Positions 4,266 to 52,749 of a stretch of DNA of 64,000 nucleotides are shown one piece after another. The notes below the pieces were generated by a model, which saw nothing but the letters and a program-made list of their open reading frames with translations, made no database searches and was not told the DNA's origin. The DNA comes from Lachnospiraceae bacterium (GTDB lineage Bacteria; Bacillota; Clostridia; Lachnospirales; Lachnospiraceae), in assembly GCA_045586385.1 (NCBI GenBank), contig JAZNAE010000005.1, positions 10,685 through 74,684 on the forward strand. The letters are read 5' to 3'. The first letter of the stretch is position 1; every line of letters starts with the position of its first letter. A program made the translations under genes and the position numbers.

Positions 4266-5795
4266 ATGAAAGCAAAAATATATAATATAGCAAAAATAAG
4301 ACAAAACAAAATAACGGATATATATCTATCAATACTTTTAATTATTTTAAGTGCAGTGGCTTTTGCCGTGTGTATTGCCCAAGGAATGGGAAATGATATT
4401 TGGTATGATGAAGTTTTTTCTGTGAATTTTTTAAAGTATCATTACGATGAAATTGTGGCCCTTACGGCAGAGGATGTACATCCTCCCTTTTATTATTGGT
4501 ATTTGAAAGCGTTTCATGATATTGGGAAACTGATCATGCCGGGAGTGGCAAGTGAGGTGCTGGCGAAGATGGCATCACTTCTTCCCATGGCCGGTATATG
4601 GGCATATGCATTTACCCTGGTACGTAAGCGAATGGGAATACTCGTGGCAAGTTTGTTTATATTCTTAATAAGTACGATGCCACAGCTTTCCGGATATGCG
4701 GTGGAAATCCGGATGTATTCGCTTGCACTGTTCTGTATTACGGCACTCTTTTTACATAGCTATGAAATTATTTTGGAAAATAAGTTGAGGCATTGGATTA
4801 CTTTCTGGATATATGGAATCGTAACAGCATATATTCAATATTATGCATGCGTAGGCGTTGTAGCTGTATATATTGCCATGTTTGTGTTCTTTTTGATGAC
4901 AAAGAAGAAGCAGCAAATGATATACATTGCCATATGTGCATGCATATCGGTGGTGGCGTATCTCCCGTGGATTCCTTCCTTGATTGCACAGATTACGAAT
5001 GTCAGCAACAGTTATTGGATACAGCCGCTTACCATCAGAAGCATTTTCGGTTGCATGAAATTTGTATTTTTACCGGTTTTTTATGCATCGGTTAAGAAGT
5101 ATGTTTTGGCGGTTATGATGATAGCCGCATTTGGATTTGCTTATTGCTTTGCACTTGTGAAAGAGAAAAATAAGGAAGGCAGATACCTGATTTTAACGGG
5201 CGTGTTTATACCTGTATTTATAGCGTTTACAGGATTTGTGGCTTCTGCGTTAAATCGCCCTATTTTTGTATATCGTTATCTGATTCCGGGACTGGGGGCC
5301 ATGTGGCTTGTGGCGGCATATGTACTGCTAAAGTATCGCAGGGAGATGATAATGTTGCTTATGCTGATTCCATTTTTGCTTGGTGGGCAGTCCAATATGG
5401 AGAGTTTTTATGCAGATGAGCAGATAAAAACGGAAAACATGGAGATGACAAACATCCTTTTGGAAGAGTTTCCGGAAGATGCAGTAGTTCTTTGTAATTT
5501 CAATCATGTACAGGCAATTGCGGCACATTATCTGGATAATGATATTGTATTGTATGGAGGCACGCCGGAAAGTCTGATTGCGAAAATGCTGCCGAATTGT
5601 AAAGAAATGCCTGATGTGTTACAGATTCAGCAGTTGGTGCAGAAAAATGATGTGTATTTTTTTGGTAGTTTTAATGCAAGAGAAGAACTATTGAAAGAAT
5701 GGGAGCAATACGGAATTGCCTATACAGAAGAGGGAACATATTTGCTTGAACGTTATTGGTTTAATGTATATCACTTAAAATACGAAGGTGAATGA
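4266..5795 (+). CDS. GT-C fold (PMT_2/GT39-like) membrane glycosyltransferase
   Basis: IWYDE after TM1, DVHPPFYY, EIRMYSL, about 11 TM segments, soluble C-terminal domain. Confidence 0.75.
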   Translation: MKAKIYNIAKIRQNKITDIYLSILLIILSAVAFAVCIAQGMGNDIWYDEVFSVNFLKYHYDEIVALTAEDVHPPFYYWYLKAFHDIGKLIMPGVASEVLAKMASLLPMAGIWAYAFTLVRKRMGILVASLFIFLISTMPQLSGYAVEIRMYSLALFCITALFLHSYEIILENKLRHWITFWIYGIVTAYIQYYACVGVVAVYIAMFVFFLMTKKKQQMIYIAICACISVVAYLPWIPSLIAQITNVSNSYWIQPLTIRSIFGCMKFVFLPVFYASVKKYVLAVMMIAAFGFAYCFALVKEKNKEGRYLILTGVFIPVFIAFTGFVASALNRPIFVYRYLIPGLGAMWLVAAYVLLKYRREMIMLLMLIPFLLGGQSNMESFYADEQIKTENMEMTNILLEEFPEDAVVLCNFNHVQAIAAHYLDNDIVLYGGTPESLIAKMLPNCKEMPDVLQIQQLVQKNDVYFFGSFNAREELLKEWEQYGIAYTEEGTYLLERYWFNVYHLKYEGE

Positions 5796-43243: not shown

Positions 43244-43272
43244 AAAAGAGACATGCAATATGTCTCTTTTTT
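43244..43272 (+). terminator. Terminator after recN, overlapping a possible sigmaG -10 (CATACTA 43238-43244) for spoIVB
   Basis: AAAAGAGACAT-gcaat-ATGTCTCTTTT + TT; the -35 for the forespore promoter has imperfect spacing, so the promoter call is weak. Confidence 0.65.
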
Positions 43273-43334
43273 CTTGCGGGAAACGAAGAGGGTATATTGG
43301 TTGTTTTCATAAGAAGAAAAAAGGGTGTGAAAAA

Positions 43335-44645
43335 TTGGAAAGAAATGAAATAACCTGTAACGGCAAACTGTTACTTTACAGAAAAATATTATATATTTCG
43401 CTTATTCTCAGTGTTTGTCTGACTTTTATTTCCGCCTACTATACATTGTGGAACCGTGTGCCGTCTACCATCATGGTGAGAGCAGGAATGCTTCAAACCC
43501 TTGATTTTAATTTGCCGGCATCGGGGGAGATGTATCGTGAGGAGGCGATAGAAGCCAGTGGTCAGGCACAAACATATGGTAGTCTGCAGGCAAGAAGTGT
43601 CCGTATTGATTTCAGTAATCCGGTTACAGTAAAGGCAAATCAAGTTGATAATTATAAGTTAAGTCTTAAATTATTCGGTATCATTCCACTAAAAGATGTA
43701 GATGTAAAAATTATACAGGATGTAAAGTTAAAACCCGCCGGAATCCCTATTGGGATATATGTGAAAACACACGGGGTTTTGATAGTCGGTGTCGGAGACT
43801 TTGAGGGTGAACAGGGACAAACCCATGAGCCGGCTAAATACGTTTTGCAAGCGGGTGACTACATTTTGGAAATGAACGAGGAAGAAGTTACCGGAAAAAA
43901 ACAGCTGATAGAAAAGATAAGTCACAGCGAGGGGCAGGAGATTGTATTTAAAATAAGGAGAGACGGAGAAGTATTCGAAGTAAGTGCAACGCCCCAGACA
44001 AACAGAAACGGGGAATATAAGATGGGCATCTGGGTAAGAGATAATGCGCAAGGTGTCGGAACCATGACTTACATTGATGAAAATTCCTGTTTTGGTGCTT
44101 TGGGGCACGGTATTAATGATGTGGATACCAGCACGTTAATGGAACTCTCCGACGGTACACTGTATCATACCGAGATTATCGGGATCACAAAAGGCCAAAA
44201 CGGTTCACCCGGAGAACTTACCGGATTTATTGAGTATGATGATAACAATATCATGGGAACTATCACAGCAAACACTGTAAAAGGAATTTTCGGAGTTTGT
44301 TCTGAAGATGTAACAAGTTCAAACGGCTATGATTACATGCCGATTGGATTAAAACAGGAAATAAAACAAGGACCGGCACAAATCATATCATCCTTAGGTG
44401 GTGCGGCAGAAACCTTTGACGTAGAAATCAAAGAAATCCGCTTAGAGAATGATGACATCAACAGGGGAATCGTACTGGAGATTACCGATCCAGATCTGCT
44501 TGCCTTGACAGGAGGAATTGTGCAGGGAATGAGCGGTAGCCCGATTATCCAAGATGGAAAGATTATCGGGGCTGTGACACATGTACTGGTGAATGACCCG
44601 ACCAGGGGATATGGGATCTTTATTGAAAATATGCTGGAGCATTGA
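43335..44645 (+). CDS. spoIVB: SpoIVB serine peptidase (PDZ + S55)
   Basis: G.WVRD...GVGT.T, GALGHGI.D, GG.VQGMSGSP, GAVTHV; TTG 43335 preferred because ATG 43260 lies inside the terminator hairpin. Confidence 0.93.
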   Translation: MERNEITCNGKLLLYRKILYISLILSVCLTFISAYYTLWNRVPSTIMVRAGMLQTLDFNLPASGEMYREEAIEASGQAQTYGSLQARSVRIDFSNPVTVKANQVDNYKLSLKLFGIIPLKDVDVKIIQDVKLKPAGIPIGIYVKTHGVLIVGVGDFEGEQGQTHEPAKYVLQAGDYILEMNEEEVTGKKQLIEKISHSEGQEIVFKIRRDGEVFEVSATPQTNRNGEYKMGIWVRDNAQGVGTMTYIDENSCFGALGHGINDVDTSTLMELSDGTLYHTEIIGITKGQNGSPGELTGFIEYDDNNIMGTITANTVKGIFGVCSEDVTSSNGYDYMPIGLKQEIKQGPAQIISSLGGAAETFDVEIKEIRLENDDINRGIVLEITDPDLLALTGGIVQGMSGSPIIQDGKIIGAVTHVLVNDPTRGYGIFIENMLEH

Positions 44646-44775
44646 GAAATGTAGGACAGGAGTAAAAGGCTACGATGCAAGCTTGCTTGCGTAAGTAGCC
44701 TTTTTATGACTGGACTATATGGCGAAAGCCGTACAGCGAGATGAAGCAACGCGGAATCGAGCTGCATTTCTCAAT
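44641..44775 (+). other. 135-nt multi-branch structured element (ncRNA or REP/MITE-like repeat) starting at the spoIVB stop
   Basis: 14-bp terminal inverted repeat ATTGAGAAATGTAG/CTGCATTTCTCAAT enclosing hairpins with CUUG and GAAA tetraloops. Confidence 0.65.
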
Positions 44776-44797
44776 TAAGTGGCGGTCAGGGTAGAAA

Positions 44798-44881
44798 GTA
44801 TCTATAGAAAAAAATATTATTTTTAGAATCCGTTTTTTGAGAAATAGGGATTCTATTTCAATAATTTTTCCCTATAGATAC
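44798..44881. repeat. 84-nt AT-rich imperfect hairpin downstream of the nuclease-like gene
   Basis: GTATCTATAG...TAGAATCC / GGATTCTA...CTATAGATAC. Confidence 0.75.
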
Positions 44882-44997
44882 GCATTATGAGGTTTTGAGC
44901 AAGAAAACTAATAAGAAAACTATAAAAAGGGATTCCAAATTCATAAAAAATTTGTATAGACCGAGCAAGGCATAGACATCCTAATAAGAGGTTGAAA

Positions 44998-45774
44998 CTA
45001 CATAAAGTGATACTCAATGTACTTTTCTACAATTTCGGGATTTAAAGGATGATTTTTAGTTTCATACGTGGTAATGAGCCGGATTCCGGGAGTAATGCCG
45101 TAAGTAGCATAAAGATTTAATTTGGAGGTTGTTTTTTCAATATAAGCAGAATTATCCATGAGTCCAAAATGTTCCCAATAATAGAAATCACCGGTGTGAG
45201 GATGACGGATAGTGAAGTCAGGATAGATGAGAGTATTACCTAATTGAAGGGCACACTCATAGCGAAATGGAATGTTATGAGAATGAAGAAGCATATCAAT
45301 TAACACCTCGGACTTGGAACGTAGATAAGTGTTTGAGACACCTTTATAAATCAGATTTTCCGGATGGTTTTGGTTTTTCTCATATGGAAAATTCATCCAA
45401 TCGGTCAATTCCTTTGATAAGGGGGTGAAATAGGGGGCAAGCAATTGCTGATATTCAGATGGTGCTATGAGAAGTTGTTCAGACTTGCCGGTAGGAGAGT
45501 GATGTCGTAAGTAATAAGAAAGTGCGTTCTTTTCGTGTTCTAAATCTTCAAGTAGTAGGGATAAATATTTCTTTTTGGCTAGTTGCTCTGCCAAAAGGCG
45601 ATTGGATTTTGGAATATAAATTTTGCGGTGACCATCGCTTAGATACCATTTGGATGTGTTATGATGATGACAACAAATTAGTTTGCCGGGAGGCAGTGAT
45701 TGTAGTTCATTTTGAATATGGCAGATGCGATTGCATATGGCATCATATTCAGATTTTATGCGCTCAGAAATCAT
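44998..45774 (-). CDS. Hypothetical protein with C-terminal Vsr/DUF559-like PD-(D/E)XK nuclease-like domain
   Basis: RSKSE helix, FRYE, YPDF, WEHFG motifs; RBS AGAAAGGAG on the - strand. Confidence 0.6.
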   Translation of the reverse strand: MISERIKSEYDAICNRICHIQNELQSLPPGKLICCHHHNTSKWYLSDGHRKIYIPKSNRLLAEQLAKKKYLSLLLEDLEHEKNALSYYLRHHSPTGKSEQLLIAPSEYQQLLAPYFTPLSKELTDWMNFPYEKNQNHPENLIYKGVSNTYLRSKSEVLIDMLLHSHNIPFRYECALQLGNTLIYPDFTIRHPHTGDFYYWEHFGLMDNSAYIEKTTSKLNLYATYGITPGIRLITTYETKNHPLNPEIVEKYIEYHFM

Positions 45775-45898
45775 TCATAAGCTCCTTTCTGTAAAGTATT
45801 AAAACTATTAAAACATAATGTGAGACAAGAAACAAGTGGTTATACATAAGAGCAGAGAATAAATAGAGTTTAAAAGAAGTCACAATTTGCGATTTCTT

Positions 45899-45934
45899 TG
45901 CATTTCATCCTTCAAAAATGCAACTCATCCGTCA
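45899..45934 (+). promoter_or_regulatory. Direct-repeat pair, candidate LytTR binding site
   Basis: TGCATTTCATCCTTCA (45899) and TGCAACTCATCCGTCA (45919), 13/16 identical, 20-bp period. Confidence 0.6.
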
Positions 45935-51060: not shown

Positions 51061-51083
51061 TAACATTAATAAGGAGTTTGTTT

Positions 51084-52127
51084 ATGAAATATCCCGCATT
51101 TTTAAAAGAAAACGGAACAATCGGATTTGTTGCCCCTGCTTTTGGGTGTAATATAGAGCCATATAAATCAGCATTTCAAAATGCACAGAAAAAATTGAAA
51201 CAAATGGGTTATCAGATGGATGTAGGCCCTAACTGTTATGAAGGACGTGGAATCGGCATCAGCAATACACCAAAAACTTGCGGAGAAGAGCTGACCGATT
51301 ATTATTTCAGTGAGAATAATGATGTTCTGATATCCTGCGGCGGCGGAGAGTTAATGTGTGAAACCATAAGCCGGGTGGATTTTGATGCATTAAAGAGTGC
51401 AGAGCCGAAATGGTATACCGGATATTCCGATAACACAAACATGACCTTCTTATTGGCGACAATTTGCGATACCGCATCTCTATACGGACCTTGCGCCGCA
51501 GCGTACGGAATGGAGCCGTGGCATCCGTCTATCAGTGATATGTTTGACTTTTTGAAAGGACAAAAGCTTACTTTTGAAAGTTATGATTTGTGGGAAAAGG
51601 AAGGGCTAAAAGATGCAGAACATCCGTTGCTGCCATATCATTGTACAGAAAAATCGGAAGTGAAAATCTTTATGCCGAAAGATGATACTATGGAAGAAGT
51701 AAGCTGCGGTAAGATGCAGGGGCGACTCTTAGGCGGTTGTATGGATTGTCTTGTGAATCTGACAGGTACGAAATTCGACAAAGTAAAAGAATTCACAGAG
51801 AAATATAAGGAAGACGGTATACTTTGGTTTTTAGAGGCTTGTGACTTAAATGTATTCAGTATACGAAGGGCGATGTGGCAGATGAAGGAAGCCGGTTGGT
51901 TTCAGCATGTAAGAGGATTTGTTATCGGAAGACCCTTAAATGGTGAGGAAATGATGGGACTTGATCAGTATGAAGCCGTGCTTGGTATTGCAAAGGAATA
52001 CAGGGTTCCAGTGTTCATGGACGCAGATTTGGGACACCTGCCTCCTGCCATGCCGTTTGTGACGGGAAGTGTTGCAAAGATAGAAGGAAAAGACGGAAAA
52101 ATGAGAATTTCATACGAATTAAAATAG
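51084..52127 (+). CDS. S66 LD-carboxypeptidase/MccF-like peptidase
   Basis: GYSD Ser, FLE Glu, GH.PP His; ATG 51084 after AAGGAG. Confidence 0.88.
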   Translation: MKYPAFLKENGTIGFVAPAFGCNIEPYKSAFQNAQKKLKQMGYQMDVGPNCYEGRGIGISNTPKTCGEELTDYYFSENNDVLISCGGGELMCETISRVDFDALKSAEPKWYTGYSDNTNMTFLLATICDTASLYGPCAAAYGMEPWHPSISDMFDFLKGQKLTFESYDLWEKEGLKDAEHPLLPYHCTEKSEVKIFMPKDDTMEEVSCGKMQGRLLGGCMDCLVNLTGTKFDKVKEFTEKYKEDGILWFLEACDLNVFSIRRAMWQMKEAGWFQHVRGFVIGRPLNGEEMMGLDQYEAVLGIAKEYRVPVFMDADLGHLPPAMPFVTGSVAKIEGKDGKMRISYELK

Positions 52128-52186: not shown

Positions 52187-52227
52187 AGTTTCGTAGCAGT
52201 ATTTGTGAAAATATGGAGGAACTTTTG

Positions 52228-52749
52228 ATGGAACAGCTAAATTTGACGACAATGAAGGATACGGAAAAGGTGCAGATGCTATTTGAAAGCCTTTTACAGA
52301 TGAACAGAGAATTCCAGATTATGATTACGGTACCTTCGGAGATAAGAAGCGCAGAAAAAGAAGGAAAAGAAATAAAAGCGGCAGAAACGCCTCTTACCTT
52401 TGACCTAGAAAAAGACGTAACGGATATGATACATGAGATAGGCGTGCCTGCACATATAAAAGGATATCAGTATTTACGAGAGGCAATTATGATGTCAGTG
52501 AAGGAAGCAGATATGCTTGGGTCTATTACCAAGGTGCTTTATCCAACCATTGCGGAAAAATATCAGACCACATCAAGCCGTGTGGAGAGAGCTATCCGTC
52601 ATGCCATTGAGGTCGCATGGAACAGAGGACGCATGGAAACTTTGGATAATTTGTTCGGATATACCATAAACACAGGAAAAGGCAAACCCACCAATTCCGA
52701 ATTTATTGCACTGATTGCAGATAAAATCAGATTGCAGTACAGAAAATAG
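52228..52749 (+). CDS. Spo0A C-terminal effector-domain protein lacking a receiver domain
   Basis: [19 protein letters not shown]...[17 protein letters not shown]...KPTNSEFIA; about 55-aa non-receiver N-terminus; ATG 52228 after GGAGG. Confidence 0.9.

Follow-up and report, generated by a model that had tools for sequence, protein, structure and literature searches.

What is the elaborately folded stretch into which the spoIVB gene of a Lachnospiraceae bacterium runs at its stop codon? The locus lies in 64,000 nucleotides (nt) of contig JAZNAE010000005.1 (assembly GCA_045586385.1, positions 10,685 to 74,684 of the forward strand), here called the window. It had been flagged from the sequence letters as a multibranched RNA-like element with a closing stem, three arms, CUUG and GNRA tetraloops and tandem G·A mismatches, and had been taken for a mobile structured repeat or noncoding RNA. 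Our analysis identifies the element, at 44638–44779 on the + strand, as one copy of a widespread, Lachnospiraceae-specific family of structured repeats of about 140 nt, which is so far uncatalogued and which we term the spoIVB type. The family keeps a four-helix junction by compensatory changes, with selection on the strand sense to the upstream gene, and its copies sit in sense orientation at the stop codon of the upstream open reading frame (ORF), with spoIVB as the home site.

Fold, Family and Covariation

In the window, the covariance-model match folds into a closing helix, P1, and three arms. Its 5' leader AGCAUUGAG (44638–44646) contains the UGA stop at 44643–44645, with spoIVB ending ...GAG CAT TGA and its last codons and stop lying inside the 5' end of the element. 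P1 derives from the inverted repeat ATTGAGAAATGTAG/CTGCATTTCTCAAT, which holds this TGA and counts 13 Watson–Crick pairs and one G-U pair, as the original prediction had it; this is true of the sequence but not of the folded helix, since C44762 is unable to serve arm 3 and the closing stem at once, and in the minimum-free-energy fold as in the family consensus P1 has 11 bp (44641–44651 with 44765–44775). The 5' strand (44641–44654) accordingly comprises this core and three nucleotides, 44652–44654, that pair alternatively, and the 3' strand (CTGCATTTCTCAAT / CUGCAUUUCUCAAU, 44762–44775) ends at the 3' boundary of the repeat unit, nucleotide 44775. Arm 1 (44657–44712) is a long hairpin with G·A internal loops and the cap GCAAG-CUUG-CUUGC, the apex AAGCUUGCUU being found at 44679–44688 (CUUG loop at 44682–44685) and the cap region reading GCAAGCUUGCUUGC at 44677–44690. 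Arm 2 (44718–44733) is the 16-nt hairpin UAUGGC-GAAA-GCCGUA with the core GGCGAAAGCC at 44721–44730, and arm 3 (44734–44764, sequence GCGAGAUGAAGCAACGCGGAAUCGAGC) is closed by invariant CA...UG pairs (44734–35 with 44763–64), inside which it runs from 44736 to 44762, and carries tandem G·A pairs and a 2-bp tip with a 3-nt loop. All the features that had been predicted are present at their predicted positions.

The minimum-free-energy RNA fold of the + strand is the multibranch structure, at −60.3 kcal/mol (z = −5.78), with none of 200 shuffles as good, and the minus strand folds more weakly, at −46.8 kcal/mol. With DNA parameters the + strand takes the same fold at −29.4 kcal/mol (z = −4.9). 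A tRNA/tmRNA scan found nothing.

Homologues were sought in comparison loci, which carry L-numbers, from two samples: 62 loci anchored on SpoIVB homologues and chosen irrespective of the element, and genome contigs scanned with the pattern AAGCTTGCTT-N26-38-GGCGMAAGCC, which joins two invariant cores and returned at least 120 stretches, mostly from Lachnospiraceae. A covariance model, R1, was then built from eight loci of other genomes on a hand-drawn four-helix structure, with the window excluded. R1 matches the window over the full length, 44638–44779, at 96 bits (E 5.9e-22), which excludes a chance origin, and it returns 10 matches in the spoIVB set, 79 in L063–L162 and 19 in L163–L182. The repeat family that had been proposed is thus borne out by some 100 further Lachnospiraceae copies. 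As to copy number, there is one copy only within the 64-kb window, and several genomes carry 2–4 copies on different contigs or at different genes. Cultured carriers include Anaerolentibacter hominis CSJ-1 (L073) and "Bacterium 1xD42-87" (L076). A model match at 51560–51579, near a Spo0A-like ORF, was considered as a second copy or relic and dismissed as chance, being tiny and inside an ORF. The scan pattern matched only twice among 2.9 million viral contigs and BLAST of phage and plasmid collections gave no match; a phage or plasmid origin was rejected. Our literature search on the element turned up nothing beyond the 2010 Clostridiales-1 catalogue discussed below.

Covariation, which had been put forward as a check on the structure, was assessed on an alignment of 79 copies fitted to the covariance model. 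Standard pairs are formed in 87.6% of cells versus 37–43% when partners are slid by 1–3 columns, double-sided changes occur in 47 of 50 pairs, and the covariation score is 0.574 versus about 0.09, a value of 0.574 being reached by none of 500 shuffles. Every helix covaries, P1 included (one position is GC in 30 copies, AU in 27 and CG in 8); arm 1 has double substitutions at all of its 18 pairs, and one basal pair of arm 3 is UA in 34, CG in 19 and GC in 11 copies. Arms 1 and 2 had already emerged from an independent MAFFT/RNAalifold run, in which compensation was seen at 25 of 31 pairs. Pairs of the G-U and U-G kind number 131 against 34 for A-C and C-A, an excess that marks the sense strand of the upstream gene as the selected single strand. 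The proposal of a strand-specific, selected structure is upheld.

What the stems give up in sequence the loops retain. The apex AAGCUUGCUU is invariant in 28 of 28 aligned copies, themselves retrieved by a pattern that specifies AAGCUUGCUU, and stands at 90% or more in the 79-copy consensus. Also invariant or nearly so are GGCGAAAGCC in arm 2, the leader (a)gcaUUGAG, the consensus opening agcauugAG, and, at the junction, the bases UAU and ACA, and the spacing from arm 1 apex to arm 2 core is fixed at 30–32 nt in most copies. The notion that arm 1 might be a captured "spacer" was dropped, as arm 1 sequences form graded, mosaic subfamilies.

Position at Stop Codons

In many Lachnospiraceae it is this element that normally sits at the spoIVB stop codon, with 9 of the 62 sampled loci carrying it; in a sample of 80 polC genes, likewise unbiased for the element, it follows 3–4. 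About 40 of 95 copies begin precisely where a SpoIVB homologue (38–96% identical to the window protein) has its stop codon, and in all spoIVB-linked copies the stop occupies motif positions 6–8 of AGCAUUGAG. Other upstream genes, checked against Pfam, encode an M23 peptidase, a Hydrolase_2 cell-wall hydrolase, PolC, PheS, GltB, YicC, a solute-binding protein, RecO and a lactonase, with stops at −2 to +8 of the motif and in all three frames. Overall, 64 of 72 copies share the strand of the upstream ORF, and for about 55 of the 72 that ORF has its stop between −7 and +12 nt. In several operons, for example recO-lipoprotein and M23-ORF, the element spans the entire gap from the stop codon to the next ribosome-binding site.

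The stop codon of polC is occupied by different superfamily subtypes in different lineages (L359, L341, L360), and in Eisenbergiella L359 and L341 (~1944–2110) a canonical-like copy's own leading UGA is the polC stop codon. At L092 (1209–3689), four full or partial copies are found in the 2.5 kb that follow a short-chain dehydrogenase gene.

Relation to Clostridiales-1

At the gathering score, Rfam has no match in the window or in 20 spoIVB loci. A permissive scan of 44400–45100 (701 nt) gave one meaningful match, to the Clostridiales-1 family RF01699, at 44645–44771 with 27.6 bits (E 6.4e-4), the gathering score of the family being 48 bits; the alignment spans model positions 1–166, with a 40-nt model segment replaced by 4 nt. 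The original prediction had allowed that a match to a described Rfam family would leave the element real but not novel. This applies in part, RF01699 being the sole match but a subthreshold one. Sister variant copies score 31.1–44.5 bits against RF01699 or not at all, five of eight tested being without a match at E ≤ 1. Conversely, of canonical copies, which were fetched with GGATTGTGGGAGTGC, 15 in 18 loci pass the gathering score, at 49–155 bits, and R1 finds none of them with default filters and, with filters off, only arm 1 of a canonical copy, at 10.4 bits.

The two groups have much in common. Both belong to gut Lachnospiraceae/Clostridiales, are multicopy with tandem partial arrays, start with UGA at the 5' end and consist of a closing helix and three arms. 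Arm 1 is long in both, with A/G-rich internal loops and an apex of the G(CUUG)C type (canonical caps GAGCUUGCUC or UGCUUGCA), and arm 3 has a GA...GGA internal loop, a 2–3-bp tip and a 3-nt loop, although the window sequence differs from the RF01699 arm 3 motif, GGAUUGYGGGAGYRC-NNN-GYRCGGAACAAUCC, and aligns to it with gaps and mismatched pairs. They part company in arm 2, a 16-nt GAAA hairpin in the spoIVB type and a branch of ~55 nt with an inner hairpin in canonical copies, in the leader (AGCAUUGAG versus UGAUGCCAG), and at the 3' end, where the spoIVB type lacks the terminal-inverted-repeat hairpin with its UUUUGAC loop. They also differ in setting: canonical copies are mostly in AT-rich intergenic DNA with target duplications, whereas the spoIVB type is at stop codons. 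Because the architecture is common while scores are subthreshold and arm 2, leader and 3' end differ, we read the spoIVB type as a short-arm-2 sister subfamily of Clostridiales-1 that falls below Rfam's membership standard. Clostridiales-1 itself is classed by Rfam as "Gene; sRNA"; it was judged non-cis-regulatory, and its structure was found to be less conserved once distant homologues were added (Weinberg et al. 2010, PMC2864571).

Canonical Clostridiales-1 copies look like miniature transposons. They run past the Rfam model to the 3' hairpin and end in CTTTTGACCCCAACATCA, the inverse of their 5' end TGATGCCAGGGTCAAAAG, so that they possess terminal inverted repeats of ~18 nt. About half of the well-defined copies have AT-rich direct repeats of 5–6 nt (5-nt examples are TATAA, TTATA and TTTCA), and contigs from other loci break exactly at the canonical unit ends, L190 4920 and 5117. 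Such copies were seen at L190 4921–5117 and also in L196, L197, L246, L193, L214 and L221. Free-standing relatives of the variant type have 19–22-bp termini TGTAAC...GTTACA (L078, L196, L350) and direct repeats TTTATT (L196), AAATT (L350) and ATAATTT (L177). In L196 such a copy (4868–5188, − strand; 48.6 bits, 20-bp inverted termini, TTTATT on both sides) has a canonical copy of 128.6 bits 12 nt downstream of it.

In the window, the 14-bp inverted termini are those of P1, which covary rather than keep their sequence, and the flanks GGAGC and TAAGT form no direct repeat. No transposase or recombinase was found beside copies or in the small islands examined, insertion sequences with TGTAAC.../TGATGCC... 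ends not having been searched for. Neither was an empty/filled pair of close relatives found, the polC scan returning no close relatives of the carrier. The insertion envisaged in the original prediction is not a one-off event, given the 9 occupied spoIVB loci, and there is no clean empty/filled site or target duplication to go with it; mobility of the spoIVB subtype is instead suggested by its distribution and phylogenetic discordance.

Exchange between Loci and Genomic Setting

Copies are exchanged horizontally, the crossover falling in a conserved stretch, the final ~130 nt of spoIVB. Between nadK and the spoIVB end, the window aligns colinearly with its closest relative, L001, at ~88–90% DNA identity, and the two SpoIVB proteins share 96% identity; the elements are only 67% identical, with entirely different P1 and arm 1, and beyond them nothing is shared. 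The L001 element is instead 98–100% identical to those of L180 and L087, whose spoIVB DNA is only 58–63% identical to that of L001. The same holds across the set, where elements 94–100% identical stand beside spoIVB DNA of 56–63% identity and elements 67–79% identical beside spoIVB DNA of 82–89%, element and spoIVB identity correlating at r = 0.27 over 35 spoIVB-linked copies. In a three-way alignment, L001 follows the window until the last ~130 nt of spoIVB and matches L180 at 100% beginning with the stop codon. Replacement of the element in situ was therefore rejected for L001: it is a recombinant, and the L180-like DNA that begins at the stop codon was acquired as one piece.

The last ~130 nt of spoIVB are conserved across the family and travel with the element as a fragment in L070 and L150, and this stretch may plausibly serve as a homology patch for exchange. 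Such detached 3' fragments (~115–130 nt) with their element lie at L070 2004–5132 and L150 5142–5390, and in L070 fragment and element recur as direct repeats on either side of a 2.9-kb block with genes for two proteins, one unknown (342 aa) and one of the Schlafen AlbA_2 / HATPase_c_4 kind. An integrative island with its own recombinase was considered for the blocks between these duplicated units in L070 and L150 and discarded, as they hold no integrase or transposase.

Traces of past turnover are common. Decayed relics lie downstream of many copies, among them, in L001 and L180, one of the window type that reads GGTGATAGCT instead of GGCGAAAGCC; L087, L174 and L106 hold mosaics of partial copies of other subtypes (L087 with a 26/26 match to window 44751–44776), L171, L137, L078 and L152 have tandem duplications of the portion from arm 2 through arm 3 to the P1 3' strand, and L109 has one chimera with mismatched P1 halves. 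Metagenome contigs that carry the spoIVB end or a window-type element diverge from the window at 44633–44654 and 44775–44780. In L013, L130 and L205, runs of N start inside or just after elements or arrays and hide part of the arrays; they are probably masking or assembly gaps at repeats.

With crossover in the spoIVB end, the element stands at the left-hand border of a variable region. In the window, spoIVB (43260–44645, +) encodes a 461-aa S55 peptidase with a PDZ domain (Pfam Peptidase_S55, 1.4e-83), and the gene order is nadK-argR-recN-spoIVB, the element, a convergent 258-aa ORF, a hydrolase, a LytTR regulator, a DUF3021 protein and a MatE transporter. The convergent ORF (44998–45774, −) is the next gene after the element and has no Pfam match, and the block from 44.8 to 52.1 kb is missing from L001. 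The interval between the convergent 3' ends contains, shortly after the element, a 10-bp inverted repeat, GTATCTATAG / CTATAGATAC (44798–44807 / 44872–44881), which encloses an AT-rich stretch with the hairpin AGAATCC...GGATTCT and could be a bidirectional terminator or another small repeat. The element had been thought to occupy the place where spo0A is expected. This was not confirmed: the only Spo0A-like ORF in the window (52213–52749, +; 178 aa) lies 7.4 kb downstream, past the variable gene block, and has the Spo0A_C domain only (8.7e-47), without a receiver domain. It is directly preceded by a 349-aa ORF (51078–52127), and similar C-terminal-only Spo0A matches occur in L021, L077 and L148.

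Proposed Role and Alternatives

Most likely, by analogy with the stop-codon-adjacent REP (repetitive extragenic palindromic) elements of E. coli, the element would have a cis-acting role at the 3' end. Stated in full, this reading makes it a structured repeat of the Lachnospiraceae, sister to Clostridiales-1, that sits at the spoIVB stop and acts in cis as a structure of the 3' untranslated region (3' UTR), and we give it about an even chance of being right. The element would be transcribed together with spoIVB, forming the initial ~140 nt of its 3' UTR, and fold as RNA. With the stop codon in or next to P1 and some 12 nt downstream covered by the ribosome, a terminating ribosome would have to melt P1, and the fold would be possible only on messages that are not undergoing termination at that moment. 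At the 3' end of the message it could then protect against 3' exonucleases or modulate termination or expression of the upstream gene, and the paired ends, being brought together, may make the element tolerable between cistrons. The wider family would stem from miniature transposons, with P1 corresponding to the terminal inverted repeats and the free-standing relatives having target duplications.

The E. coli REP/BIME sequences are transcribed, structured, repeated and extragenic and are found at gene 3' ends, many of them within ~15 nt of the stop; they stabilise upstream mRNA or modulate termination, and form arrays and recombination hot spots. Liang, Rudd and Deutscher are said to have reported in 2015 that stop-codon-proximal REPs affect translation of the upstream gene. 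The present element resembles them in its sense orientation near the stop, with the window stop codon inside P1. A REP, however, is a single hairpin of ~35 nt with conserved sequence, mobilised by RAYT (IS200/IS605-like) and known from proteobacteria, whereas the element has 140 nt folded into a four-way junction, its loops invariant and its stems covarying, and the functional parallel is one that we infer only. Structured bacterial miniature inverted-repeat transposable elements (MITEs) that are co-transcribed with genes include the Neisseria Correia, enterobacterial ERIC, pneumococcal BOX/RUP and Bacillus cereus bcr1 elements. Here the likeness is in size (100–200 nt), noncoding and multicopy nature, inverted termini that pair in RNA, location in 3' UTRs or between cistrons and, in the relatives only, AT-rich target duplications. 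Ordinary MITEs keep the sequence of their termini while the interior drifts, whereas in our family termini and arms covary and loops are invariant; moreover, it is sense-oriented to the upstream ORF and the spoIVB type lacks target duplication. Integron attC sites, finally, also keep structure while sequence varies, are strand-specific, follow ORFs, sometimes overlapping the stop, and form arrays in variable regions. They are single imperfect hairpins with R/L boxes and extrahelical bases beside an integron integrase; here no integrase was found, the hosts are core genes (polC, pheS, spoIVB) rather than cassettes, and the structure is a four-way junction with tetraloops.

Several points weigh against a cis-acting 3'-UTR structure. 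The public RNA runs are shallow, undirected metagenome/metatranscriptome contigs that may contain DNA, and no obvious terminator follows the window copy. Invariant apical loops on variable stems, with fixed arm length, point to a specific protein or RNA partner, which a plain "stabiliser" does not need. In addition, GCGAAAGC and GCGAAGC are very stable single-stranded DNA hairpins and G·T wobble is tolerated in DNA, which leaves room for a role at the DNA level. Finally, spoIVB-type copies have no target duplication, as judged by an automated scan too crude to trust, and no outer TGTAAC termini, which leaves their route to the stop codons of other genes unexplained. A tentative extension is possible but clearly less probable: the element may be a termination-linked RNA device, in which each terminating ribosome, meeting the stop codon within the closing helix, remodels the junction and the CUUG and GAAA hairpins recruit a partner, and/or may spread by homing to stop codons. 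Such homing would explain why copies start within 8 nt of a stop, sense-oriented, in at least 15 unrelated gene families.

The DNA-level properties just mentioned are shared ground with a second explanation, that the repeat is purely selfish DNA whose single-stranded or cruciform fold serves transposition or recombination, as in attC sites or IS200/IS605 ends, the RNA fold being incidental. The mini-hairpins and the strong DNA fold speak for it, as do the relatives with terminal inverted repeats and target duplications, the horizontal exchange, the location at synteny break points and the occurrence directly after ORFs and in arrays, in the manner of attC sites. Nevertheless we consider it doubtful, because target duplications denote double-stranded cut-and-paste, which has no need for paired internal arms, and P1 termini covary, unlike sequence-conserved transposase binding sites. 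Sense orientation and stop adjacency relate to gene expression and not to DNA; to this are added the lack of recombinases or transposases in the places examined and the absence of the element from plasmid and phage collections. A small RNA (sRNA) that acts independently in trans, either from a separate gene or as a stable 3'-UTR fragment whose loops bind protein or base-pair with targets, would account for invariant loops, freely varying stems and fixed arm length, and would agree with the sRNA type assigned to the related family by Rfam and with its non-cis-regulatory verdict (Weinberg et al. 2010, PMC2864571). We hold it to be unlikely nonetheless. The element starts inside coding sequence with no promoter-like site in front, several divergent copies and decayed relics occur per genome, and the shallow, undirected public RNA contigs show no discrete transcript; and about three quarters of copies are linked to the upstream stop in both position and orientation, neither of which a trans-acting gene requires.

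Might the element regulate the downstream gene, as a translation-coupled attenuator or riboswitch-like device in which the ribosome at the stop selects P1 or an alternative fold? The stop codon in or next to P1, the copies that fill the whole gap to the ribosome-binding site (recO-lipoprotein, M23-ORF) and the tandem extra P1 3' strands, as alternative pairing partners, would suit this. We find it quite improbable, however, as the next gene in the window is convergent (44998–45774, −), downstream content is unrelated even in close relatives, no terminator/antiterminator pair is evident, and the conserved bases are in the apical loops rather than in a junction pocket. An elaborate intrinsic terminator or a chance palindrome, to which location at a gene 3' end and GC-rich hairpins might lead one, has next to no chance of being correct. 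P1 is followed not by a U tract but by UAAGUGGCGG, and no terminator-like site was found in a scan of the + strand from 44300 to 45900, in agreement with the original judgement that this is not a terminator; a palindrome arising by chance would not have ~100 homologues with compensatory changes in four helices or outdo all 200 shuffles. This last explanation is already refuted by the covariation and family evidence.

Conclusions

Although very common in human-gut DNA, Clostridiales-1 has stayed an orphan motif since 2010, and a large sister subfamily of it has been missed by the Rfam threshold. New in the present analysis are a testable positional rule, namely sense orientation at the stop codon, the home site being spoIVB, which encodes a sporulation protease, and horizontal turnover, location at the edge of a variable genomic region and the link of the superfamily to transposon-like termini. 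If true, a termination device or stop-codon homing would represent a novel type of 3'-end element and assign a function to the Clostridiales-1 superfamily, so far an orphan. Annotation of Lachnospiraceae genomes would improve, and these abundant gut bacteria are seen to carry a strongly selected RNA fold.

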